A DNA stretch of 47,667 nucleotides from Actinomycetes bacterium (GCA_021803215.1 JAJZLV010000125.1:1-47667); one strand, 5' to 3'. Positions 8-39,379 are shown, numbered from the stretch's first letter. Notes: generated by a model not told the origin, from the letters alone. Made by a program: numbers and translations.

Positions 8-84
<77 letters not shown>

Positions 85-102: not shown

Positions 103-443
103 GAGGAGACCAGGCGCCCCCGCCGCTGGTAGCGCCTCAGTCGGAATCACGCGCGCTGAGAGGCCTAAGGGGATGGTCGGCTCCTGCAGCGATCTCTCCA
201 GGGCTGCTCGGTGAGCCGACCCGCACACACCAGGCCGCGTGTCAAAGATGAGTCTTCGTCCTGCGACGGCGAAGTGGACAGAGCACTGGGCCGGCTCTTC
301 GGCGCTGGTGATGCTCACGCGGTGGGTTTTGTGAGGGAGTCATCACTGGGAGATTCGGCCAGCAGCCGAAAGGCACGACGAACGGCCCGGGCGGAGACCA
401 GTAGCCCTGTCGTCGAGGGACCAGAGCACGTAACATCTTGGCC

Positions 444-857
444 ATGTCTTCGGCTTCGGAAGTTCTCGCAAAGGTTCCGATCTTCTCTATGCAGCCTCCC
501 AAGGAGATCGCGAAGCTCGCCCGTGCCGCCCACGAGCGCACCTTCGCGGCGGGGACCGTCATGAGCGAGGAAGAGGACTTCGGGAGCATCTTCACCGTCA
601 TCGTCGATGGGGAAGCGAGCGTCTCCGTAAGGGGCCGCCAGGCACGCACCTTGAAAGCAGGAGACTTCTTCGGCGAGATGTCGATCATCGACCGGTCTCC
701 TCGCTCGGCGACTGTCAAGGCAGAGACAGACTGCACCTGCCTCATGCTCACCCAGCCAGTCTTCCGCCCCTTTGCCGTCTCACATCCCGACACCATGTGG
801 GCGCTCTTGGAGCTGATGGTGAAGCGGGTACGCGAGAGCGAGGCGCGCCAGAGCTAG
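444..857 (+). CDS. Stand-alone cyclic nucleotide-binding domain protein
   Basis: VPIFS, GDFFGEMSIIDRSPRSATV phosphate-binding cassette; ends before any CRP HTH. ATG 444 preferred over TTG 438. Confidence 0.9.
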   Translation: MSSASEVLAKVPIFSMQPPKEIAKLARAAHERTFAAGTVMSEEEDFGSIFTVIVDGEASVSVRGRQARTLKAGDFFGEMSIIDRSPRSATVKAETDCTCLMLTQPVFRPFAVSHPDTMWALLELMVKRVRESEARQS

Positions 858-859
858 CA

Positions 860-1700
860 GAAGGGACCGGCTCGTCAGGCACCAGTGCCACGCTCGGCTC
901 CCTTGCACTCCTCTCTGGGACAGTCCTCTTCGCCGACACCGCCGAGACCGACGGCATCTCGAGTCCGAGGCGGGAGCCCACCTCTTGCTCAATGCCCGGC
1001 AGGAACTGCCCGGCAGGCGTTGCAGCCAGCGCCCACTCATCTCTAGGCCGGCAGCGCTCTCGGAGAGCTCCGCTGGTAGCTTCGGCACCGGTGCGAGATC
1101 GAAGGTGGCCGTCCGGCCGAATCCCGGCTGGCGAGCCTCTTCCAGCACCGCACGGAGCCGGAAGAGTCGCTGCCCCGCCTCGCTGGGAGGCTCCCGCGCC
1201 TTCCAGAGAACCTCTCGGTGAAGAGATCTCTCGACGCTGGCGAGCCCCTCCCAGGCCTCGCCCGCCCAGACGAAGACCGCCGAAACCTCGAGCCAAGGCG
1301 AACCAATGGAGACGAGCTGGCCTCCTGTGTCATAGAGAGCCACGATGCCTGCGAGCCGACAACGCGTAGCCCTTCGACAACTCGACGACGTCGGCGTCGA
1401 TCTGGGTCCGGTCGGTGCCTTGGGCGAAGAGCCGGCGATGGCCGCCTTCCAGCCCGAGGTCGCGCTCATAGTGGCCGGCGAGCTCGCCAGAGTCCCAGAG
1501 CGCGCCTGCTGTACGTAGAAGCGGTCGAAAGCTCATCGCTAACCCTGGCACCGAGTGGCACGTCGAGAGCCAAGAGGAGGTCCGCGTGCCCGGATGGGCG
1601 AGGAGCCCACGCCGGCCAGGAAGCCGCCGGCTTCTCCTCGCGCCAGCCCGTCAGATTATCGAGCAGTCGTCGCTGCCCGCAGAGCTGGGCCGGAAGACAC
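860..1700 (-). pseudogene. Possible decayed gene of unknown family
   Basis: Protein-like segments occur in successive minus-strand frames (LWDSGELAGHYERDLGLEGGHRRLFAQG; LAGIVALYDTGGQLVSIG...); no single intact ORF; family not recognised. Confidence 0.3.
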
Positions 1701-1732
1701 AAGCCGCTCCCGGCCGCCCGGCAGGAGACCGC

Positions 1733-1873
1733 TCAGTAGCTACCGCCGTGCACGGTCGTCGCCGGGTGGTGGCCACCGCCATTCGAGCTGCAGCCGGCCG
1801 CCACAAGTCCGCCGCCCACGATGAGGGCGACCGCGAACAGCACCCGCCGGTAAATCGAGACGCGCCTTTGCAT
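1733..1873 (-). CDS. 46-aa putative lipoprotein
   Basis: MQRRVSIYRRVLFAVALIVGGGLVAAG-CSSNGGGHHPATTVHGGSY: basic N-region, hydrophobic core, lipobox-like VAAGC; purine-rich GAAAGGGA before ATG; 40 bp downstream of the MFS-ASST gene. Confidence 0.7.
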   Translation of the reverse strand: MQRRVSIYRRVLFAVALIVGGGLVAAGCSSNGGGHHPATTVHGGSY

Positions 1874-1913
1874 TCTGTTCCCTTTCAAACGATCGCTCCG
1901 GCCTGTCAAAAGC

Positions 1914-4913
1914 TCAGTGAAATTTCCTCTCGATCCCAAAGACCCGAGACGACCTGAGGACTCGGCCGGCCGAGTCGAGCGCCTCAACCTCGAAGCGCCT
2001 GGCCCTCGAGGAGACGAGCATCACGCTCTGGAAGCCTCTCTTCGGGGCAGTCAGCAGCTGGCGGAACCGGCCGCCCGGTCCTTCAGCCAGCACCCGCCAG
2101 CGCGCCACCTCGGTCGCCCCGTTCCAGCTGACGTAGATCTTCGTGCGATCCCCAGCTGGCCGGGCGACCGCCCTCGGGAGGGTGAGCGGCTTTCCCACCC
2201 AATGACGGACGAGGACGGCCCGGTACGACAGGTCCGGGCCGGGCAGCTGGGCATTGAAGATCAGCTTGCCCGAATGGGTGTACTCGGTCAGCTCTGGCTG
2301 GGCCCCCCAGCCGACGAGGACGTCACCGTTCGGCAGGAGCTGGGTGCTGCCCATGTAGGCGGCGTCGAAGCTCTTCCCGTAGACGTACTGCGCCTTCAAG
2401 GTGGCGGTGTGCGTCTTGCGGTTCAGGTGGAGGACGAGGGCACGAGAGGGGGCGGTCGCTCCCACGTAGGTGCCGGCTCCGCTGATCTGGCAGCAGTGGT
2501 CGTCGAACATGGTGATGGTCGACCGACCGTTCATGACGACGTCGTGCTGCCACTCGAACATGGCCTTCTTCGGCAACTTGAACGAGGAGTGCCTGCCTCC
2601 GAGCGTCCAGACGATCTTCTTGGTCTTCACGTTGATGTCGTAAGCCGCCCAGGTGTTGCGCATCGAGACGACGAGCGTGTCCTTGTGACCGAGGCTTATC
2701 GAGTTGACGTGGTAGGCGTCCCAGGGAAAGCCGTTCGTCTGCGGGATGGCGTGCGAGGCGGAGAGCGGGATGTGGTGGAGGGCGTTCCAGCTCCAGACGA
2801 GCTTTCCTGTCTTCAAGTCGTACTTCTGGACCGCCGAGTCCGTGATGGCACCGTTCTCGGTCCCGCCGTACCTGTAGAGGTTCATCGGGATGTTCTTGTT
2901 CGCCGTCACGTAGGCGTACTTGCCCTTGATGATGAACGAATGGAGGGTGAGCACCCAGCCGTCCTGGCCCTTGATCTTGGCGATCGTCTTGTAGTGCTCG
3001 TTCACCACGATGTACTCACCGGACTCGGTCGCCCCGGTCGGGGTGATGATCCCCTGCCACCAGGAGAGGACCGGCTTGCCCTCGTAGATCTGGGCTGCCA
3101 GGTCCGAGGCGACGTACTTGGGCGGCGTCGGCCTGAACCAGATCGGTGTCAGGTTCGGCGCCAACAGGAGCGGGCCGCTCTGACCGTCCATCGGGTGGGT
3201 GGTGAGGTTGTAGAAATTGCCGACCATGACATCGCCCGGAAGCGTCTTCCGGCTGGCCGTGCCCTCCGTGACCGTGATGCGCGGGGGATGGAGATTCGGG
3301 GCCGAGACGAAGTCGTAGGCCCCCTGCTTGCTCCAAGCCCCGATCGGAGCCCCCGCGCCCCCTGCCACACCGAAGTCGAGCGAGAGGAAGGCGACGATGA
3401 GAAGGCCGACCCCGATCGGGAGGCTGAGGCGAAGCTTCGGCTGGCTGCGGGCCGGGGCGTTGTCGGTCCTCGGCATGAACAAGAACGCCACCACCAAGGC
3501 GGCAAGGACGAAGCCGGCTCCTATCAGGTATGCGAGCCGGTAGCCGTCGGTGAGGGCCACTGAGGCCACCTTGTTCTCGCCGAAGAAGTGGGTGGTGAAC
3601 TGGGTGGCGAGCGAGATGAGGAGGGCTATCCCGAGCCCGCCGCCCGATTGCCGGGCGGTGTTGACGAGGCCCGAGACGAGCCCGGCCTGCTCGGGAGCCG
3701 AGCCCTGGATGGCCGCGATCGTCGAAGGGACGATCGAAAGGCCGATGCCGGCCGCCACGAGGAGGCCGGGAAGGACGATGTAGCCGACGGCGCTGCCGCT
3801 CGGCCCGATGCGGACGAAAAGGAGCATGCCGGTGAGCATCAGCAAGAGCCCGCTGACCAGGACCGGGCGGGGCCCGAAGCGGGACACCAGCCCGCCCGCC
3901 CGGTGGGCGGAGAACATGATCAAAAGCGCCATCGGCAAGAAGGCGAGCCCGGTGGCGAGCGGCGTGAGGCCGAGCACCTGCTGGAGGTAGAGAGAGCTCA
4001 CGTACCACATGGGAAAGAGCGCTGCGCTGAACAAGAGAACGACGGCGTTCGCCACGAGCACCGGCCGGGTGAGCGAGCGGAACGGGATGAGCGGCTTTCT
4101 CGCGAGGTGGGTCTCGACGTAGCCGAAGACCCCCGACAGGACGAGTCCGCCCGCTATCGGCCCGATGGCGAGCGGGGCGAGCCAGTTCGAGTTGCCGGCG
4201 TTCACGACCCCGTAGACGATGAGGACCAACGATGCCGTGAGCAGGAGCGCCCCGAAGAGGTCGAAGTCGCTCCTCTCGCTCTCCTTCCTGCGCTCGGCCA
4301 CCACCGCGAGAGCGATGAAGGCGGCGATGATCCCGATCGGCGGGTTTATGAGAAGCACCCAGCGCCAGCCGAGGCCGGAGGTGAGCACCCCGCCGAGCAG
4401 TGTGCCGGCCGCTCCCCCGGCACCGTTCATGGCACCCCAAAGAGCGATCGCCTTGTGACGCTTCGGCCCTGCCTCGAACGAGTAGGTCACGATGGCGAGC
4501 GACGAGGCGGCCATGAGGGCCCCCGAGAGGCCTTGCACGCCGCGGGCGACGACGAGGAGAGTCTGGGTCGGCGCCATGCCGCCCGCCAGCGAGGTGAGCG
4601 AGAACAAAAGGAGGGCGGCGACGAAGAGCCGGCGCTGCCCGAAGTGGTCGCTCGCCCGGCCGCCGAACATCAAAAAGCCGGCGAAGGCGATGGCGTAGGC
4701 GTCCACCACCCACTGCAAGCCGACGGCCGAGAAGCCGAGGCTCGACTGGATGGAGGGGAGGGCGACGTTGACGATGCTCAGGTCCAAGATGACCATGAAC
4801 TGAGCCACGCAGCAGACGACGAGGAGCCAGCGGCTCCTTCCTTCGAAGCTGATCCCTCCCGCCTTGGTCTCCGGCCCGCCGCCGCCTCGGCGCTCGCCGA
4901 CTTCGGTGCTCAC
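1914..4913 (-). CDS. DHA2 (EmrB/QacA-like) MFS transporter fused to a C-terminal arylsulfotransferase (ASST)-like domain
   Basis: N-half: MVILDLSIVNVALPSI, WVVDAYAIAFAG, GGRASDHFGQRR, WRWVLLINPPIG. C-half: APNLHPP, WDAYHVNSI, WTLGG, FEWQHD, MFDD, GSTQLLPNG, YVSWNGATEV. GTG 4913 overlaps the upstream stop (GTGA). Confidence 0.9.
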   Translation of the reverse strand: MSTEVGERRGGGGPETKAGGISFEGRSRWLLVVCCVAQFMVILDLSIVNVALPSIQSSLGFSAVGLQWVVDAYAIAFAGFLMFGGRASDHFGQRRLFVAALLLFSLTSLAGGMAPTQTLLVVARGVQGLSGALMAASSLAIVTYSFEAGPKRHKAIALWGAMNGAGGAAGTLLGGVLTSGLGWRWVLLINPPIGIIAAFIALAVVAERRKESERSDFDLFGALLLTASLVLIVYGVVNAGNSNWLAPLAIGPIAGGLVLSGVFGYVETHLARKPLIPFRSLTRPVLVANAVVLLFSAALFPMWYVSSLYLQQVLGLTPLATGLAFLPMALLIMFSAHRAGGLVSRFGPRPVLVSGLLLMLTGMLLFVRIGPSGSAVGYIVLPGLLVAAGIGLSIVPSTIAAIQGSAPEQAGLVSGLVNTARQSGGGLGIALLISLATQFTTHFFGENKVASVALTDGYRLAYLIGAGFVLAALVVAFLFMPRTDNAPARSQPKLRLSLPIGVGLLIVAFLSLDFGVAGGAGAPIGAWSKQGAYDFVSAPNLHPPRITVTEGTASRKTLPGDVMVGNFYNLTTHPMDGQSGPLLLAPNLTPIWFRPTPPKYVASDLAAQIYEGKPVLSWWQGIITPTGATESGEYIVVNEHYKTIAKIKGQDGWVLTLHSFIIKGKYAYVTANKNIPMNLYRYGGTENGAITDSAVQKYDLKTGKLVWSWNALHHIPLSASHAIPQTNGFPWDAYHVNSISLGHKDTLVVSMRNTWAAYDINVKTKKIVWTLGGRHSSFKLPKKAMFEWQHDVVMNGRSTITMFDDHCCQISGAGTYVGATAPSRALVLHLNRKTHTATLKAQYVYGKSFDAAYMGSTQLLPNGDVLVGWGAQPELTEYTHSGKLIFNAQLPGPDLSYRAVLVRHWVGKPLTLPRAVARPAGDRTKIYVSWNGATEVARWRVLAEGPGGRFRQLLTAPKRGFQSVMLVSSRARRFEVEALDSAGRVLRSSRVFGIERKFH

Positions 4914-5620
4914 GAGGTCTCGGCCGCGACCTCTCCCGCTCGCCACTCCGACAGGACAGCCAGAGCGGAATCGATGATGCGATCGGCGAAGGTGGCGGAG
5001 TCGTTGACGCGGGGGAAGGGCTCCTGCGGCACGGGCAGCTCGAGGAACTCACAAAGAGGCTCCCAGCCCTCTGCCGGGTTCCAGACGAGCAGGCGGTCGG
5101 CCGGAACGGTCGCTTTCACCCCGGCGTTGTACTCCTCCATGGCGTGGGCCATGTAACCGGGATCGGCGTCGTCCGGGTCCTCCGGCATGAGCCCGCTCTT
5201 CTGCCACATAGAGCGCATCATCTCGAGGTAGCCATCCCAGGCAGGGTCGATCTTCGCCCGGGCGCTCGAGAGATCCCGCATGAGGAGGTCGCCGTAGAAC
5301 ATCCCCCAGATCGTGTCGGTCATGCTGCGCTCCCAGCTCTCGGGCTGGCGCACGCTCAACAGCACCTTGGCATCCGGGTAGAACTCGATGAGCTCCCTGT
5401 AATAGAAGGCCCCCGGCCAGTCGACGGTCGCCTGGTACCCGGCAAAGACGCTCTCGAAGTCCCCGCCGCCGCTCTCGAAGAGCGACTGCCACTTCTCTGC
5501 AAGGCTCAAGTCGCCGAGGACGTTTACCATGTGATAGCAGGGCCCGAGCCCGAGCTTTTCGAGCGCCTCTTTCTGCGACAAGGTCGCAGTGCGCGGCAGG
5601 CCGGCTCCGATCAGCTTCAT
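4910..5620 (-). CDS. Sulfotransferase family protein (Sulfotransfer_4-like, probably PAPS-dependent)
   Basis: MKLIGAGLPRTATLS, GPCYHM, ATVDWP, YPDAKVLLSVR, VPADRLLV, GWEPLCEFL, PFPRVN; RBS GGAGGGG before ATG 5620. Confidence 0.9.
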   Translation of the reverse strand: MKLIGAGLPRTATLSQKEALEKLGLGPCYHMVNVLGDLSLAEKWQSLFESGGGDFESVFAGYQATVDWPGAFYYRELIEFYPDAKVLLSVRQPESWERSMTDTIWGMFYGDLLMRDLSSARAKIDPAWDGYLEMMRSMWQKSGLMPEDPDDADPGYMAHAMEEYNAGVKATVPADRLLVWNPAEGWEPLCEFLELPVPQEPFPRVNDSATFADRIIDSALAVLSEWRAGEVAAETS

Positions 5621-5761
5621 GTGATTCCCCTCCAAGGTGTGTTGCTCCCGGACCACCATAGCGAGGCAGTCTTGCGCTGTGAAAGCCTTGAGTGCTGCCT
5701 GGGTCCGAACTGAGAGCTTCCTTGGCTTAGAGCCGCGTATACCCCTACCCTCTCAGGAGGA

Positions 5762-8734
5762 TCAGCTCACCCGCTTCCAGCTGGGAAAGCGCAGCCTCTT
5801 GGCACCGATGGCGTCGGCGCTGGCATGGCTCTTGCCGGCCCGGCCGGGGGAAAGTGGGCTCGGCGGGCTGCTGAACGGACGGCCCTTGGCCGCACCCGTC
5901 GACTTGGAGGAGGCCTTCTGCTCGGCGATGAGCTTGTGGGCTTGGCTCAGGTAACGCCCCATCACTGCGAGGTCCCTCTGCAAGGCGCCGAGCTGGAAGC
6001 CCCTCTCGGCCACGAGCGAGCGCTGGTAGGCCTGATAGGCCTTGTCGAGGTCCGCCGTCACCTTGACCGAGAGCACCGACGACGGAGAGCTGCCCACGTA
6101 GCGGACGCTCGAGCCGAAGACGGACTTGAGCGCTCCGATCAGGCTCGGGGCAAAGCGCACCTCGTTTCCGTTCAAGTCAACCGCCACGTCGGCCAGCACC
6201 GGGGGTGACCTGCTGTCCGAAGAGACGTAGATCGACTGGATGTAGATGAACGAGTCCTCGATAGGGACGAGCACAGGCGAGCCGTAGAGGACCCGGGCGT
6301 GCGCCCGGCGCAAGAGGGCGACCTGTTGCACGACCGCCCGGCTCAGCTGGAGCCGCGACGCCACCAGCGAGGGCCCGAGGGCAGAGGCCTTCACCCGGGG
6401 AAGCTCGTAGCTGATGAGCCGGCCGTAGCTCTTGTAGCCGCTCTCTGCCACGGTGAAGCCGGCCAGCTGCTCGGTCCGTCCGGTGATCGAGAAGGGGACG
6501 AGCGGCTCGACGGCGAGGAACTGGGTGTTGGTCCGCCCCGGCAGGCGCAGCATCTCGTAGGTCGGCACGTAAGGGGCGTTGCGGCTCCCCTCGGCCAGGG
6601 AGAAGGAGTTCTCGAAGCGGTAGAACTCCCTCGCGCCGGCCGCCGTCGCCTGGTAGTGGTAGCGCCCGTACATGGCCGAGAGCAGCATGAGGAGCGACCT
6701 CGAGTAGCGAAGGTGGTTCTCGAGCCCGGGAGAGAGCCGGCTCATCGCCTTGAGCGGCTCGATGAGTCCCGGGTAGACGTGCTCCCAGGCCCTCAGCACC
6801 GGGTCGCGCGGGTCGAGCGCGAAGAAGCTCAGCTTCCCGCTGTAGGCGTTCACGACCGCCACGACCGAGTTGCGGACGTAGTTGTACTGGCCCTGCAGCC
6901 CGTTGTTCGGTCCGAGCACTCCGGTGGGGGCTCCCTCTGCATAGGGGTAGGAGTCGCTCGTGGTGTAGCAGTCGACCATGAAGTAGACCTGCCCGCCCGA
7001 GACGACGGGATAGGGGTGCGAGCCAACCTTCAAAAACGGCGCCGCCTTCGCGACCCGCTGGCGGACGTTCTGCACGAACAAGATGCGTGATCTCTTGGTG
7101 ATGAGGCTCGAGTCGAGCAGGTTGAGGTCGTGAAAGCGCATGGCGAAGGCCGCCCGCTGCCAGAAGCCCGTCAACCGCACACCGCCCGAGCCGCGGTAGT
7201 GGCTCGTGACCGGACCCTTGGCCGTGGCGTAGTCGAGCTCCCTCTCTTTCGTGTCGACCACCACGTAGCTGCTGGAGCTGTCCCCGAAGTAGACGGCCGG
7301 CTGGTCTACGACCGGGGCGCCGTTCGTCGAGTTGTCCGGGATGCCGGAGATGTCATAGGTCGGGCGGCCGCTCGAGGTGACGGTGTTGGCGGGCGACATC
7401 ACGACCCCGTAGCCGTGGGTGTAGATGAGGTGCTCGGCCACCCAGCTGTGGCGCGGGACCGCCCCGCTGTCCACCTCCCTCGTGCCGATCACCACCGGAG
7501 TGAGGCTCTGGCTCCCGCCGTTCGTAAGCTGGTAGCGGTCGATCGAGAGTCCGGCCACCCGGTAGTAGCTGTGGAGCGACTGCATGGCGTCGTAGGTGGC
7601 GCTGGCCACGCTCGGGCTCCAAAGTGGCAGCTCGGCGAGCGCCGGCAGGTCGGCCTCGACCGTGCTCGCCTTCAGGTTGGGGCTGGCGTCGAAGCGGACC
7701 GCCCGAACCTGCGAGAGCCCGAAGGCCGCCCGGGTGGCGGCGATGTTCCGCTGCAGGTACGGGAGCTCGACGCTCGCCTGGGAGGGGTTCACCACCACCC
7801 ACTGCACGATGGCGGGGTAGATCATCCCGATCACGAGGGCCACGAAGGCCCAGAGGCCGACCGCCACGGCCGGCAGCGCCCAGCTGCGGTGGTAGACGTT
7901 GTAGCTGAGCAGGACGAACGAGATCATGCTCAAGATGGCGAGGATCGAGAGCGCCGGCAGGCGGACATGTACGTCGGTGTAGTCGGCCCCCACCACGAGC
8001 CCGTTCGTGGACAGCCCCAGGTCGAAGCGGTCGACGAAGAAGTAGCCGGCGGCTCTCACGAGGGCGACGATGGCGAGGATGAACGAGAGGTGGGCGGTCG
8101 CCCGGGCGTCCACCCGGGGGCTCGGCCCGCTGGTCCGGATGGCGCCGTTCAGGTAGTGGGCGACGGCCGTCACTATGAACAGCACCACGAGGGCCACGAG
8201 CGACCAGTCGACGAGGAAGGACAAGAAGGGCAGGCGGAAGACGAAAAAGCCGATGTCGCGGTGGAACTGCGGGTCCTTCACGCCGAACTTCCCGCCGTTC
8301 ATGAACAACAGCCAGTGCTGCCACTGCCCGCTGGCGCCGACTCCGACCGCCAGGGCGAGGAGGAACGAGACGACCGTGCGCAGCGCTACCCGGAAGCGCC
8401 CGATCGAGGCCCGGTAGCGGCGGGCCATCTCGTACTCGGCCGCCGAGTAGATGTCGGGCGGCGAGAGGGCGTCGGCCACGTGGAGGCTGGTCCAGCAAGA
8501 GACGAAGAAGACCCCGCTGAAGACGATCGCCAGCCCGGCCCGGGTCTCGGCCATCGACCGCCAGATCATCGAGAGGTGGACCGAGCCGAACCAGAGGTAG
8601 TTCGTGTAGGCATCGGCGATCAGCTGGACCGCCACGATGGCCAAGATGACCGCCAGGACCCCGAGGATGATCGCCAGCTGGTAGCCGCGCAGCAGGCGCG
8701 GCCGCGAGATGACGGCCTGGTCTGGGAGCCTCAC
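5762..8734 (-). CDS. UPF0182 family membrane protein
   Basis: YTNYLWF, FGVKDPQFHRDIGFFVFRLPF, GADYTDVHVRLP, HLIYTHGYG, YTTSDSYPY, YNYVRNSV; start placed at GTG 8734. Confidence 0.92.
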   Translation of the reverse strand: MRLPDQAVISRPRLLRGYQLAIILGVLAVILAIVAVQLIADAYTNYLWFGSVHLSMIWRSMAETRAGLAIVFSGVFFVSCWTSLHVADALSPPDIYSAAEYEMARRYRASIGRFRVALRTVVSFLLALAVGVGASGQWQHWLLFMNGGKFGVKDPQFHRDIGFFVFRLPFLSFLVDWSLVALVVLFIVTAVAHYLNGAIRTSGPSPRVDARATAHLSFILAIVALVRAAGYFFVDRFDLGLSTNGLVVGADYTDVHVRLPALSILAILSMISFVLLSYNVYHRSWALPAVAVGLWAFVALVIGMIYPAIVQWVVVNPSQASVELPYLQRNIAATRAAFGLSQVRAVRFDASPNLKASTVEADLPALAELPLWSPSVASATYDAMQSLHSYYRVAGLSIDRYQLTNGGSQSLTPVVIGTREVDSGAVPRHSWVAEHLIYTHGYGVVMSPANTVTSSGRPTYDISGIPDNSTNGAPVVDQPAVYFGDSSSSYVVVDTKERELDYATAKGPVTSHYRGSGGVRLTGFWQRAAFAMRFHDLNLLDSSLITKRSRILFVQNVRQRVAKAAPFLKVGSHPYPVVSGGQVYFMVDCYTTSDSYPYAEGAPTGVLGPNNGLQGQYNYVRNSVVAVVNAYSGKLSFFALDPRDPVLRAWEHVYPGLIEPLKAMSRLSPGLENHLRYSRSLLMLLSAMYGRYHYQATAAGAREFYRFENSFSLAEGSRNAPYVPTYEMLRLPGRTNTQFLAVEPLVPFSITGRTEQLAGFTVAESGYKSYGRLISYELPRVKASALGPSLVASRLQLSRAVVQQVALLRRAHARVLYGSPVLVPIEDSFIYIQSIYVSSDSRSPPVLADVAVDLNGNEVRFAPSLIGALKSVFGSSVRYVGSSPSSVLSVKVTADLDKAYQAYQRSLVAERGFQLGALQRDLAVMGRYLSQAHKLIAEQKASSKSTGAAKGRPFSSPPSPLSPGRAGKSHASADAIGAKRLRFPSWKRVS

Positions 8735-8744
8735 CGGAGAAAGG

Positions 8745-10742
8745 CTACGAGGTGGCGGGCACCAACAGGCAGCGGCAGCCGGGATGGACGGGCGGGTGCA
8801 GCTGGCCGGTCGGGAACTCCTCTCCGACCGCCACCGGCCCGGCGAGGGCGTTGTCGTCGCAGTCCGGGCAGGGCTGCCCATCGTCGTCGACCACCCAGCG
8901 GGCCGCCGTGCCGGCCCCTCCCGCCACGGCGCCCTTCGAGAAGGACTTGACGGCGAAGTCGCCGGCCGCCTGCTCGACCCTCTTTCGCCGCCACTCCCGG
9001 TAGGAGGCTCCGGCTGCCTCGGTGGCTCCCTCGGAGAGGTCGCTCACCTCTTCGAGGGCCTCCTCTAGGCGGTGGCGCAGCAGCCCGCTCACCTCGGCCG
9101 CCAGCTCGGAGGCGATCTCGCTCCCGGCGCTGGCAGGCGAGCCGTCGGCCGGCTCGGCTCCGGAGAGCCAGCGGTGCCCGAGACTCCAGGCGTCGGCCAA
9201 GAGCTTGGCCGTCGCCTCTTCGATCCTCGAGCGCTGGGCCTCTGCGGGGAGAAGCTTTTCCAGCTCGGGCCGGCCGGAGGAATGCCGGATGGCGTCGAGG
9301 AGGAGGTTCTGGTCGTCTTGCAGGGCCCGCTTCAAGGCTCGCGAGAGCCTGCCGGTGACCGGCCCGAGCAGCTCGGCTCGCCGGGTGAGAGCCGCCTCGT
9401 CGTCGCTCGGGAGCTCTTCGGCCTCGGCCGCGCCCGGCGCCACCGGGGTCTCGGCCCCCGCCTTGCCGGCCTCGTCGAGCTCGACCGGCGGGAGCTCGTC
9501 GCTCTCGCGGACGTCCGCCTCGTGGGCCGAGTGGATCCCGAGCACACCCTCGCCTGGGAGCTCCCCCTCGCTCGCTGGCCGGCCCGGCCGCCCCTTTCTC
9601 CTCGCCGGGCTGGTCGGCTCGGCGGCCTTCAGATCAGGCCCTATCTCGTCGGAGGGCTGTCCGGCCGGCTCCGGGCCGGCCGCGGCCTCCTTCCGCCCCG
9701 GCTCTCCACCGAGAGGGGTCGGCTCGGCCAGAGCCGCCTCGCCGCCCGGCTCTCCTCCGGGCTCGGCCTCGTTCTCTCTCCGGTCGGCTCGGATGCGGGC
9801 GAAGAGCTCCTCGACACTTCTCCGTGAGCTGAGGTGGTCCTCTTCGGTCGACTCCTCCTCCGAGTCCGCCTCCTCGTAGCTCTCCGCCCCGGCAGGCTCT
9901 CTCGGGCGGACCGCCTCGGAGAGCTCCTCTGCTGCCTCGAGCCCGAGAGCTCCCTCTGCGAGCAGGCCCTCGTCGGCGCCGACCACCGCCTCGAGGTCGG
10001 AGTCGTCGGAGCTCTGCTCGGCCGCCTCGCCGGCAGCCGCCGCCGCCACCCGGGCGTCGTGCTCGGCGCTCGCCACCCGCTCAAGCAGCTCCCCGACGGC
10101 CGAGCCGACCGACTCGACCACCTCGATGAGGAAGTCCCGCCCGGCCCGCAGCTCCTCGAGCTGCACCCGGAGGCCCCGGCGCTTCTCGGCGAGATCTCCG
10201 AGGATCTCTCCCCGAAGCGCCTTCGCCTCGCGCACGATCCGGCGGCACTCCGCCTTGGTCGCCTGCAAGAGGGAGACCGCCTCCTGGCGGGCCGACTCGG
10301 TGACCGCCTCGGCCTCGAGCTGCGAGGCCTCGATGATGGCGGTCGCCTCCGCCTCGGCCGCCTCCTGGCGAGAGGCCAGGACCGACTCGGCCGCTCCGAC
10401 TATCTCGGCCGCCCTCGCCTCGGCCTTCGCCACCACCTCCTGGGCGGCGTCGTGGGCCGCCTGCAGGATCTTGGCCGTCTCGACTCCGACCGCCCTCATC
10501 AAGGTGGCCTCGTCCAGCTCGGGCTCGGCCGCCCGGCGCTCGGCCTCCGCCACCTTGCGGCGGAGCGCCTGCTCTCTGTCGAGCATCTCCCGCACCTCGC
10601 CGGCGAGCGCCTGCAGGTACTGGCGGACGGCCTCTTGCTCGAAGCCGCGCCGGCCGGCCGGGAAGGAGTGCCGGGAGATCTCCTCCGGGTGAAAACCCGT
10701 GCGGGTGCTGATCGCCACCATCAATGGCTCTTCGGGCGTCAT
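8745..10742 (-). CDS. DivIVA-domain coiled-coil protein with C-terminal Cys/His motif
   Basis: N-terminal HPEEISRHSFPAGRRGFEQEAVRQYL resembles DivIVA; Ala/Glu coiled coil; C-terminal CPDC...HPPVHPGCRC. Confidence 0.8.
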   Translation of the reverse strand: MTPEEPLMVAISTRTGFHPEEISRHSFPAGRRGFEQEAVRQYLQALAGEVREMLDREQALRRKVAEAERRAAEPELDEATLMRAVGVETAKILQAAHDAAQEVVAKAEARAAEIVGAAESVLASRQEAAEAEATAIIEASQLEAEAVTESARQEAVSLLQATKAECRRIVREAKALRGEILGDLAEKRRGLRVQLEELRAGRDFLIEVVESVGSAVGELLERVASAEHDARVAAAAAGEAAEQSSDDSDLEAVVGADEGLLAEGALGLEAAEELSEAVRPREPAGAESYEEADSEEESTEEDHLSSRRSVEELFARIRADRRENEAEPGGEPGGEAALAEPTPLGGEPGRKEAAAGPEPAGQPSDEIGPDLKAAEPTSPARRKGRPGRPASEGELPGEGVLGIHSAHEADVRESDELPPVELDEAGKAGAETPVAPGAAEAEELPSDDEAALTRRAELLGPVTGRLSRALKRALQDDQNLLLDAIRHSSGRPELEKLLPAEAQRSRIEEATAKLLADAWSLGHRWLSGAEPADGSPASAGSEIASELAAEVSGLLRHRLEEALEEVSDLSEGATEAAGASYREWRRKRVEQAAGDFAVKSFSKGAVAGGAGTAARWVVDDDGQPCPDCDDNALAGPVAVGEEFPTGQLHPPVHPGCRCLLVPATS

Positions 10743-38303: not shown

Positions 38304-39379
38304 GGCCAGTTCCAGCACTCATTGCAACGCAAGGCGAGCGTAGCAGTCGGCAGATGACTGCCAGTTGATGGAACGGCGAGGCATGTGATTGATCTGGCGA
38401 CTGATGGAATCGAGATCGCTCTGGTCGTAGATCCCGAGGTCGGTGCCTTTCGGCAGCCAGCGCCGGACGAGTCCGTTGAACGCCTCGTTCGAGGGGCGTT
38501 GCCACGGCTTGTGCGGCTCGCAGAAGTAGACGGCGATCCCGCTCAGCTGCTGGAGATCCTGCCAGCGGGCCATCTCCCGGCCCTGGTCCCAGGTAAGGCT
38601 GCGGCGGTGCTCTTCAGGCACCTTGTCGAACAGCTCGACGAGGCAGGCGAGCACCTCGGTGGCGTCGTGGCCGTCCGGCAGCGATCCGAGCAGGTTGAAG
38701 CGGCTCGCCCGATCGACGAGGGTGACGACTGCAGAGGCGCCTCTCTTCCCGATGATGAGATCGCCTTCGAAGTGGCCCACCTCTCTGCGCTCGTCGGCGA
38801 CCGGCGGCCGCTGGTGGATGAGACAGAACGTCCCGAGCGGACTCGTCCGAGAAGCGCAGGCACCGCCACCCCGGCAGCGGGGGCGACGGCGACGCCGTCG
38901 ACGGTGGAGATGGACGTGCAGCCCGGCGGAGAGGCCACGACGGCCGTTGGCATACACGCCCTTGTAGATCGTCTCGGCGCACAGCGTCGTGCCCTCAGTG
39001 GCCAGCTGGCGGGCGATCGTCACCGGCGAGTCCTTCGCCTTGAGGCCCGCTTCGACGCGACGGGCGAGGGCGGGATCCACCTCGAAACGGGTGGGACGGC
39101 GCCGTCTGCGCTGGCGATGGGCTCGCCGGTCTGCCTCCGCCGCCCGGTAGGCGGCGCGGCCGCCGTTGCGCTTCACCTCACGCGAGATCGTCGAGGTGGG
39201 ACGCTCGAGCACTCGTGCGATCTCGGCAAAGGAGTCCCCGCGTTCGATCCCTGCACGGATCTCCTCGCGCTCGTCCGCGCGAAGTGGTTGCCCTGGCATG
39301 ATGGTCTCTCCACTGGTCGTTGTTTCGGGGTGACCCGGCCATCATGGCCGGACCGTTGCAACGACTGGTGGAACTCGCC
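38304..39379 (-). mobile_element. IS30-family insertion sequence
   Basis: Imperfect terminal inverted repeats GGCCAGTTCCAGCACTCATTGCAACG and (reverse complement) GGCGAGTTCCACCAGTCGTTGCAACG enclose one transposase; no clear target duplication. Confidence 0.9.
38319..39299 (-). CDS. IS30-family transposase
   Basis: HTH AEIARVLERPTSTISREVKRN; GHFEGDL, SLTWDQGREM, PWQRPSNE (DDE). Confidence 0.95.
   Translation of the reverse strand: MPGQPLRADEREEIRAGIERGDSFAEIARVLERPTSTISREVKRNGGRAAYRAAEADRRAHRQRRRRRPTRFEVDPALARRVEAGLKAKDSPVTIARQLATEGTTLCAETIYKGVYANGRRGLSAGLHVHLHRRRRRRRPRCRGGGACASRTSPLGTFCLIHQRPPVADERREVGHFEGDLIIGKRGASAVVTLVDRASRFNLLGSLPDGHDATEVLACLVELFDKVPEEHRRSLTWDQGREMARWQDLQQLSGIAVYFCEPHKPWQRPSNEAFNGLVRRWLPKGTDLGIYDQSDLDSISRQINHMPRRSINWQSSADCYARLALQ

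Follow-up and report, generated by a model that had tools for sequence, protein, structure and literature searches.

A PAPS-type sulfotransferase gene overlapping an exporter-arylsulfate sulfotransferase fusion gene in an Actinomycetes bacterium: a candidate two-step sulfation relay across the membrane

Results

In a stretch of DNA from an Actinomycetes bacterium (GCA_021803215.1, JAJZLV010000125.1:1-47667; the whole 47,667 nucleotides are called the window here), we analysed three genes that had been predicted, from the sequence alone, to form a sulfate relay across the membrane. The three open reading frames (ORFs) lie in the same orientation on the minus strand and span 5620-1733. The first, P0001 (4910-5620), encodes a 236-residue, Cpz8-like sulfotransferase of the type that uses 3'-phosphoadenosine 5'-phosphosulfate (PAPS), assigned by Pfam, homology and fold. 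The second, P0002 (1914-4913), encodes a 999-residue fusion of a major facilitator superfamily (MFS) exporter module with an arylsulfate sulfotransferase (ASST), assigned by Pfam and fold, and the third, P0003 (1733-1873), a lipoprotein-like protein of 46 residues, recognised by reading the sequence and by third-position GC. The TGA stop codon of the sulfotransferase gene and the GTG start codon of the fusion gene share the four bases GTGA at 4910-4913 (minus strand). The original prediction of three co-oriented genes, the first two coupled by this overlap, was thus confirmed down to the coordinates, and the four family models that it had named for checking (PF17784, PF07690, PF14269 and PF05935) were all matched. 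Third-position GC was coding-like in all three ORFs (0.87, 0.91 and 0.83 for P0001, P0002 and P0003), and P0001 begins with ATG, with GGAGG 8-12 nt 5' of the start. A promoter-like site, TTCACA-17-TATGGT, lies 5' of the sulfotransferase gene (5655-5683, minus strand), and a weak terminator-like hairpin lies 3' of the small ORF (1702-1715, minus strand), so that predicted sites, both of them consensus matches only, bracket all three ORFs. One promoter-like site was found against 0.2 expected in shuffled sequence, and seven terminator-like sites were found in the 6-kb region against 2.5 expected.

P0001 matched PF17784 over the full length of the profile (positions 1-215 of 215; E 1.6e-61, 208.4 bits, cut-off 22.8). 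Its closest relatives among solved structures were SgdX2 (8Y9P; E 1.1e-41) and the caprazamycin enzyme Cpz8 (9KF1 and 9KF2; E 2e-41, TM 0.85-0.87), and its AlphaFold2 (AF2) model (pLDDT 86.3) superposed on 9KF2, which holds Cpz8 with 3'-phosphoadenosine 5'-phosphate (PAP), with a TM score of 0.85 and a root-mean-square deviation (rmsd) of 2.6. Within the clade of fusion-linked sulfotransferases described below, the N-terminal loop GAGLPRTATLSQK (IGAGLPRT(A/G)TLSQK), the TVDWPG motif and R91/S99 are conserved, and I4, G5, G7, R10, T11, T13, K17, R91 and S99 of P0001 are invariant in 14 clade members. The loop aligns with GFGRTGT of Cpz8 and SgdX2; we take it to be the phosphosulfate-binding loop and the downstream Arg and Ser to be the 3'-phosphate motif. 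P0001 is a PF17784 sulfotransferase by family, loop residues and fold, and PAPS-dependent transfer is predicted for it. The oxamniquine sulfotransferases of Schistosoma also matched P0001 (E 1e-26 to 5e-28). A long C-terminal helix is predicted at residues 208-235 (4910-4999, minus strand), beyond the point where the sequence matches end (203 of the 212-residue Cpz8 chain and 216 of the 256-residue SgdX2 chain). This helix is conserved in the fusion-linked clade and truncated in the one locus where both genes form a single ORF (L042, see below), and it might dock on the transporter. One complex prediction of the sulfotransferase with the MFS half scored 0.00, which is no answer, neither for nor against docking.

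The N-terminal half of P0002 is a DHA2-like MFS exporter module of 14 helices (residues 24-479; 3477-4844, minus strand), as judged from Pfam, hydropathy and the AF2 model. Residues 35-428 matched PF07690 (E 8.3e-52, 176.7 bits), and the nearest folds were those of the efflux pumps EfpA (8UFD), QacA (7Y58) and EmrB (8ZAL), with TM scores of 0.78-0.84; the Rv1410 homologue MHAS2168 was also among the nearest MFS folds. Hydropathy gave 14 helices followed by a positively charged loop, PRTDNAPARSQPKLR, and a 15th hydrophobic stretch at about 498-516. AF2, run with a 74-row alignment, gave a model with a mean pLDDT of 85.5 and a pTM of 0.83, in which 15 helices, the last at residues 487-517 (3363-3455, minus strand), are followed by an all-beta domain. 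Since the N termini of MFS proteins are cytoplasmic, an odd number of helices would leave the ASST domain outside, and the 15th helix is therefore predicted to hold this domain on the outer face of the membrane. Hydropathy and the AF2 model thus agree with the earlier proposal that the ASST domain is tethered outside rather than cytoplasmic. Over two halves of about 480 residues each, the pTM of 0.83 suggests that the model also fixes their mutual position. In the alignment of 74 fusions, D44, R124, Q127 and G128 of the MFS half are invariant, which argues that this half is under selection as a transporter and not merely as an anchor.

The C-terminal part of P0002 (residues 532-999; 1917-3320, minus strand) is a Cpz4-like ASST beta-propeller according to Pfam, homology, alignments and fold. 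Residues 608-889 matched PF14269 (E 4.4e-40, 138.4 bits, cut-off 27), and the domain also matched PF05935 (E 7.2e-12, 45.4 bits, cut-off 24.2) and the ASST of caprazamycin biosynthesis, Cpz4 (9KF4 and 9KF6; E 3e-72, TM 0.88-0.91). Superposition on 9KF6 covered 471 columns of a beta-propeller fold with a TM score of 0.91 and an rmsd of 3.3. H640, H658, H735, N737, R752, Q789 and H790 are invariant in the 74 fusions, and the equivalents of H658 (codon 2940-2942), H735 (2709-2711), R752 (2658-2660) and H790 (2544-2546, all on the minus strand) are invariant in 21 ASST domains, fused and stand-alone. In a profile of these 21 domains, H735, R752 and H790 (motif WQHD) align with H356, R374 and H436 of Escherichia coli AssT, whose chain in 4P04 has N at position 436. 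We assumed, without an alignment, that H658 is the counterpart of His252 of the E. coli enzyme. The C-terminal domain is thus of the ASST type, as originally predicted, with respect to family and residues. In a pair of adjacent cysteines, C807-C808 (motif DDHCCQ; 2490-2495, minus strand), both residues are invariant in the 74 fusions and not conserved in stand-alone paralogues; they may form a vicinal disulfide specific to the fused subfamily. According to a preprint (10.64898/2026.10.08.757629), His436 is the sulfo-histidine that carries the sulfuryl group in a ping-pong mechanism. A 2026 preprint treats 9KF6 as a structure without a describing publication in which the three histidines are conserved.

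Two-step sulfation of this kind is known from caprazamycin. According to PMC4257720, triketide pyrones receive sulfate from PAPS through Cpz8, and Cpz4 then draws on the resulting esters as its donors; the set comprises Cpz6, a type III polyketide synthase (PKS), the PAPS-dependent Cpz8 and the ASST Cpz4 (Tang et al. 2013, as cited in PMC4257720 and PMC12142624). By analogy, the products of the two overlapping genes may act in relay. First, the cytoplasmic Cpz8-like enzyme would transfer sulfate from PAPS to a small carrier that is a phenol or an enol. Second, the DHA2-type MFS half of the fusion would export the sulfated carrier. Third, the ASST on the outer face would take the sulfuryl group onto His790 and pass it to an external acceptor where PAPS is absent, after which the free carrier could be reused. 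We infer all three steps from homology, conserved residues, predicted topology and conserved linkage. The broader claim, of a joint role of the two genes in a single sulfation pathway, we hold to be quite probable, while for the specific relay across the membrane, carried out by two translationally coupled genes, we put the chances at about even.

The predicted arrangement of exporter and propeller would also suit sulfation on exit, in which the cargo of the MFS half is the acceptor, a metabolite or an envelope lipid, to which the tethered ASST adds sulfate at the exit; the donor would then be a product of the Cpz8-like enzyme that leaves the cell by another route, or would come from the environment. 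EfpA and MHAS2168, both among the nearest MFS folds, have been linked to lipid export, and the pTM of the fusion model suggests a propeller fixed on the exporter. The acceptor of Cpz4 in caprazamycin biosynthesis is moreover the final product, according to parts of PMC13426309. Only one transporter is encoded with the pair, however, and a donor made in the cytoplasm would still need its own exit; furthermore, the coupling of sulfotransferase and exporter genes together with the single fusion fits a handover of the sulfotransferase product. We therefore regard sulfation on exit as rather unlikely.

To describe the distribution of the fusion, we compared related sequences from other genomes. Of 8000 candidates scored in a protein search, 2786 matched the fusion at E <= 1e-3; among the matches listed, 117 of 120 proteins carry both PF07690 and PF14269 under labels that read only 'MFS transporter' or 'EmrB/QacA'. 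At least 569 of 599 pattern-matched stretches from species-representative genomes encode a relative of the fusion. The best 80 of these at least 569 stretches, called the related loci here, match nearly all 999 residues at 57-67% identity and come from metagenome-assembled genomes (MAGs) titled Solirubrobacterales, Acidimicrobiales, Gaiellaceae and Thermoleophilia. Since the 80 loci are related to each other, the counts given below overstate their independence. Uncultured Thermoleophilia and Acidimicrobiia carry the fusion in abundance. When a sample of 400 genomes was searched with the entire fusion (E <= 1e-150), only the window's genome was returned, a result that is uninformative with two candidates scored per genome.

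In 19 of the 80 related loci, a homologue of P0001 (50-67% identity) is encoded no more than 6 kb from the fusion gene. As a control, a sample of 400 genomes of the phylum was used, in which 40 of 401 genomes (the window's genome and one unpublished genome included) have a P0001-like gene at E <= 1e-20; no ASST domain was found within 8 kb on each side of these genes in any of 51 regions. The pairing of sulfotransferase and fusion recurs far beyond chance in related loci from other species. In the sulfotransferase tree, the fusion-linked sequences group in a single clade (SH-aLRT 99), and of the 54 sampled sequences in the 51 regions, 53 fall outside it. The clade holds 20 fusion-linked sequences, namely that of the window and 19 of the 20 found near fusions, with the second copy of one locus (L048) outside. 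The fusion tree puts the window among the 13 members of one clade (support 97), and all 13 have the sulfotransferase gene directly upstream, compared with a sulfotransferase nearby in 7 of the remaining 68. Four-base stop/start overlaps (ATGA or GTGA) occur in nine of the 13 members; one has a single-base overlap, two have gaps (4 and 27 nt), and in L042 the two genes form one ORF. The two trees group the same loci, indicating that the pair is inherited together. Co-occurrence of the genes across genomes, which the original prediction had named as a check, was thus borne out for the first two, as judged from the loci within 6 kb, the dedicated clade and the congruent trees. Five genomes in which the fusion locus has no sulfotransferase gene all had a copy elsewhere (47-54% identity), three of these copies within 3.5 kb of a stand-alone ASST gene and a fourth beside a type III PKS gene.

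The locus L042, from an uncultured Thermoleophilia MAG, carries sulfotransferase, MFS and ASST in one uninterrupted ORF of about 1200 residues (5290-8904, plus strand), in which the last 12 or so sulfotransferase residues are replaced by a short linker. A search with the L042 junction against longer proteins gave no second triple fusion, which is weak evidence, and the single ORF could be an assembly error of this one MAG.

The linkage data bear on the simplest alternative, that there is no functional coupling at all, with the MFS half a mere membrane anchor and the sulfotransferase part of an unrelated pathway. The stand-alone ASST paralogues do manage with a signal peptide or a lipid anchor, and 61 of the 80 fusion loci have no sulfotransferase gene within 6 kb. 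Against such independence stand the transport-motif residues that are invariant across the 74 fusions, the dedicated clade of the linked sulfotransferases, the four-base overlaps in nine of 13 loci together with the one single-ORF locus, and the congruence of the sulfotransferase and fusion trees. A pair without coupling appears to us barely credible.

Neighbouring genes in the 80 related loci were counted by ORF clustering followed by Pfam and tblastn. At least one stand-alone ASST paralogue is present in 57 of them, CysD in five, CysN-CysC or adenosine 5'-phosphosulfate (APS) kinase in eight, a CysQ-like protein of the inositol-phosphatase family in four, and a type III PKS in seven. The order in L017 and L032 is sulfotransferase, CysD, CysN-CysC, CysQ-like gene and fusion, and in L028 and L075 it is PKS (divergent), sulfotransferase, ASST and fusion. 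By sequence, these genes are parts of the caprazamycin scheme. A PF17784 domain and a type III PKS are joined in one 562-residue ORF of L048 (8895-10583, plus strand), and such fusions make up five of 15 longer matches in the protein collection (P0127, P0131, P0134, P0136 and P0137); a fusion of this kind would correspond to Cpz8 and Cpz6 combined in a single protein. In addition, a sulfatase (PF00884) with a twin-arginine signal was found in 24 of the 80 loci (for example L004:12868-14718, minus strand). In Solirubrobacteraceae MAGs, two to four ASST genes form an array around the fusion, and the sulfatase gene closes that array in convergent orientation; the enzyme may erase sulfate marks, recycle sulfate or serve salvage. 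A twin-arginine pattern was also seen in 11 of 31 stand-alone ASST ORFs of the related loci, a count too rough for use, since the crude pattern search placed the domain start in only 31 of 104.

These neighbours bear on two further explanations. In the first, detoxification without a relay, the sulfotransferase would sulfate toxic phenols that have entered the cell, the MFS half would expel the conjugates, and the ASST would independently sulfate external phenols. PF17784 enzymes do act on xenobiotics, as the match between P0001 and the Schistosoma oxamniquine sulfotransferases illustrates, the MFS half resembles drug-efflux pumps, and ASSTs are discussed as phenol detoxifiers in parts of PMC12142624. 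Nevertheless, the external ASST would still need an external aryl sulfate donor, the type III PKS, PAPS-synthesis and CysQ-like genes point to a carrier that is made and to a high PAPS flux, and the pair is co-inherited as a unit, so that detoxification alone strikes us as distinctly unlikely. In the second, organosulfates would be salvaged inward, with the external ASST, aided in relatives by secreted sulfatases, loading a carrier with sulfate from environmental aryl sulfates, the MFS half importing that carrier and the sulfotransferase working in reverse to turn PAP into PAPS. Regeneration of PAPS from p-nitrophenyl sulfate is within the reach of PAPS-dependent aryl sulfotransferases, and the twin-arginine sulfatase that ends ASST arrays in 24 of 80 loci would suit salvage. 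However, the reverse reaction starts from PAP, which the CysQ-like phosphatases of four related loci would remove, PAPS-synthesis genes lie inside the clusters, and the MFS half is of the exporter type. Runs containing near-identical DNA, moreover, carry the labels mine drainage, mine tailings and sediment, and mine waters are, we presume, usually rich in sulfate. Inward salvage is in our judgement very improbable.

The window's own genome (2.64 Mb, 95.5% complete) contains exactly one PF17784 gene, P0001, and three PF14269 genes, and it encodes CysD, CysN-CysC and APS kinase on contig C114. Each of its two stand-alone ASST paralogues has a twin-arginine signal at the N terminus, in one case with a lipobox behind it, indicating that the ASST family is exported here. 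The paralogue with the lipobox (LLGAAGC; contig C17, 8366-9964, plus strand) adjoins a DDE transposase gene. On contig C41 (2890-9107, minus strand), co-oriented genes encode a pyridoxal phosphate-dependent decarboxylase, a methyltransferase, a second ASST paralogue, a DUF2891 protein and a phosphoesterase; speculatively, if tyramine or another phenolic amine is the product of the decarboxylase, this row could supply a carrier or an acceptor.

The third ORF had been proposed as a micro-lipoprotein component of the system. Its sequence reads as a signal-like N terminus with a pair of arginines before a hydrophobic stretch and a lipobox, VAAG|C, which would leave a mature part of only 19 residues. 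P0003 matched no family model, and tblastn found no counterpart in the 80 related loci. Small ORFs with a lipobox were also sought by pattern, in two scans, up to 500 nt from the fusion gene; the only ones returned were that of the window and a clearly spurious GC-rich ORF in L010. A third component was thus conserved in none of the 80 other loci (one of 81 with the window), and this part of the proposal was dropped: P0003 is probably not part of the conserved system, although it may be a real gene of the window's strain. Contig pieces from runs X8, X9 and X12 show no difference within 1733-1873, with too few differences overall to test selection.

On the 5' side of P0001, genes for UPF0182, a DivIVA-like protein, a Lon_C protease and, further off, MreB lie on the same strand, all of them housekeeping genes. 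On the other side, about 1.6 kb between a tRNA-Met gene (8-84, minus strand) and the operon (85-1733) show little coding signal and include an ORF of 139 residues with a cyclic-nucleotide-binding domain (438-857, plus strand). No remnant of a decayed ASST gene downstream of the fusion was found in 1-1950 of the window. The two-gene unit is possibly a tRNA-flanked insertion. Elsewhere in the window, an ORF with HTH_38 and integrase-core (rve) domains (38319-39341, minus strand) is probably an insertion sequence-type transposase gene, and the stretch from 28.9 to 37 kb encodes sugar epimerases, a WecG/TagA glycosyltransferase and a GT4-methyltransferase. DNA nearly identical to 1600-5800 is present in sequencing runs of eight studies, labelled mine drainage, mine tailings and sediment metagenome, some of which are possibly the source of the window DNA itself. 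Long contig pieces from X8, X9 and X12 cover 1600-5800 with few differences, and no RNA run was found among the runs listed with near-identical DNA.

Discussion

Our analysis indicates that the pair of genes is an exporter-fused variant of the two-step sulfation of caprazamycin, whose chemistry, Cpz8 followed by Cpz4, is already known. The analogy had been drawn in the original prediction; matches to Cpz8 and Cpz4 on both sides, in sequence E-values and in TM scores, make it one of homology. Both enzyme families are shared with the caprazamycin pair, both proteins are direct homologues of the solved ones, the catalytic residues are kept, the two sulfotransferase types are encoded together (by overlapping genes in the window), and seven of 80 related loci include a type III PKS. 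Unlike in caprazamycin, the ASST is fused here to a 14-helix exporter and an extra helix that would place the second step outside the membrane, the genes overlap, no antibiotic cluster surrounds them and no type III PKS was found in the genome, and neither protein belongs to the clade nearest to its caprazamycin counterpart.

The other relatives share only parts of this design. E. coli AssT (3ELQ) is a beta-propeller ASST whose His436, His356 and Arg374 align with H790, H735 and R752, and it acts outside the cytoplasm, as is predicted for the fused domain, being periplasmic according to parts of PMC13426309; in contrast to the fusion, it is soluble, secreted and without a transporter, and the sequence match is weak (profile E 3.7e-4). 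The fusion shares with the DHA2 pumps EfpA, QacA and EmrB the 14-helix fold, a PF07690 match and likeness to TIGR00711, but it adds a 15th helix and a predicted extracellular enzyme of 480 residues and scores under the TIGR00711 cut-off. In pairs of type III PKS and sulfotransferase such as that of AdpST, which makes sulfated adipostatins (PMC12135136), a PKS-made phenol is sulfated in a PAPS-dependent manner. In some of our related loci, a PKS lies beside, or is fused with, a PF17784 domain. The sulfated phenol is an end product in those pairs, whereas here, as in caprazamycin, it would be a carrier.

The layout had been put forward as one without a described precedent. The literature searches made, which covered main texts, turned up no description of an MFS-ASST fusion, and the two-step chemistry itself is known. 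What is new is that an ASST is joined to an exporter by way of an extra helix, that a PAPS-type enzyme is translationally coupled, and once covalently joined, to this fusion, and that the setting lies outside any antibiotic cluster with a wide spread in uncultured Actinomycetota of soil and sediment.

The relay is supported by the homology to caprazamycin enzymes, the catalytic residues, the predicted topology, the intact exporter, the linkage, and the PAPS-supply, CysQ-like and PKS genes of related loci. Several observations weigh against it. Neither a PF02797 profile nor tblastn found a type III PKS in the window's genome, so that the source of the carrier is missing there, and neither the window nor the genome showed another gene for making a carrier. 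The window neighbours of the pair are housekeeping genes, and no biosynthetic or antibiotic gene cluster was found among them. Both proteins stand apart from the clades nearest to Cpz8 and Cpz4: sulfotransferase paralogues unlinked to an ASST score 208 and 161 bits against Cpz8 compared with 145.5 for P0001, which is thus not the closest relative of Cpz8, and against Cpz4 the stand-alone paralogue on contig C17 reaches 350 bits compared with 247 for the fused domain. The linkage is also incomplete, with 61 of the 80 fusion loci lacking a sulfotransferase gene within 6 kb. The only sampled sulfotransferase inside the fusion-linked clade, from genome G171 (L082, contig C67, 1-1089), precedes a tRNA gene and a PPK2-like gene, and no ASST match was found in that genome, which is 98% complete. 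With respect to transport, the MFS half matched the DHA2 model TIGR00711 at E 1.9e-63 and 214.9 bits, under the cut-off of 230.2, and is therefore filed as DHA2-like and not as a member of the EmrB subfamily. DHA2 pumps mostly move cationic or lipophilic compounds, and an aryl sulfate is an anion. The topology and the packing of the domains are predictions only.

A wider reading joins the relay to the observations on the related loci. Cpz4-type ASSTs would generally be enzymes of the outer face, and two-step sulfation would serve to carry activated sulfate across the membrane. The fused exporter and transferase would be one machine, fed with sulfated carrier by a sulfotransferase docked on the inside, and in one MAG covalently joined, and releasing the sulfate onto acceptors of the envelope or the environment. 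Such machines would operate in hundreds of Actinomycetota species of soil, sediment and mine water. They would supply arrays of ASST paralogues, each with acceptors of its own, and the sulfate marks would be taken off again by secreted sulfatases. We offer this combined picture tentatively, as a possibility that we doubt more than we believe.

PMC13426309 and the preprint (10.64898/2026.10.08.757629) describe bacterial ASSTs as enzymes whose natural donors, acceptors and roles are largely unknown, and the natural donor and acceptor of E. coli AssT as unknown. Caprazamycin, the only worked-out case, leaves the need for two sulfation steps unexplained. An exporter-fused ASST coupled to a PAPS-type enzyme offers a direct and testable reason, namely sulfation in a compartment without PAPS. 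If this is true, these Actinomycetota would have a large hidden capacity for the extracellular sulfation of envelope components or of soil organic matter, and the pair would provide a self-supplying sulfation module for biocatalysis.

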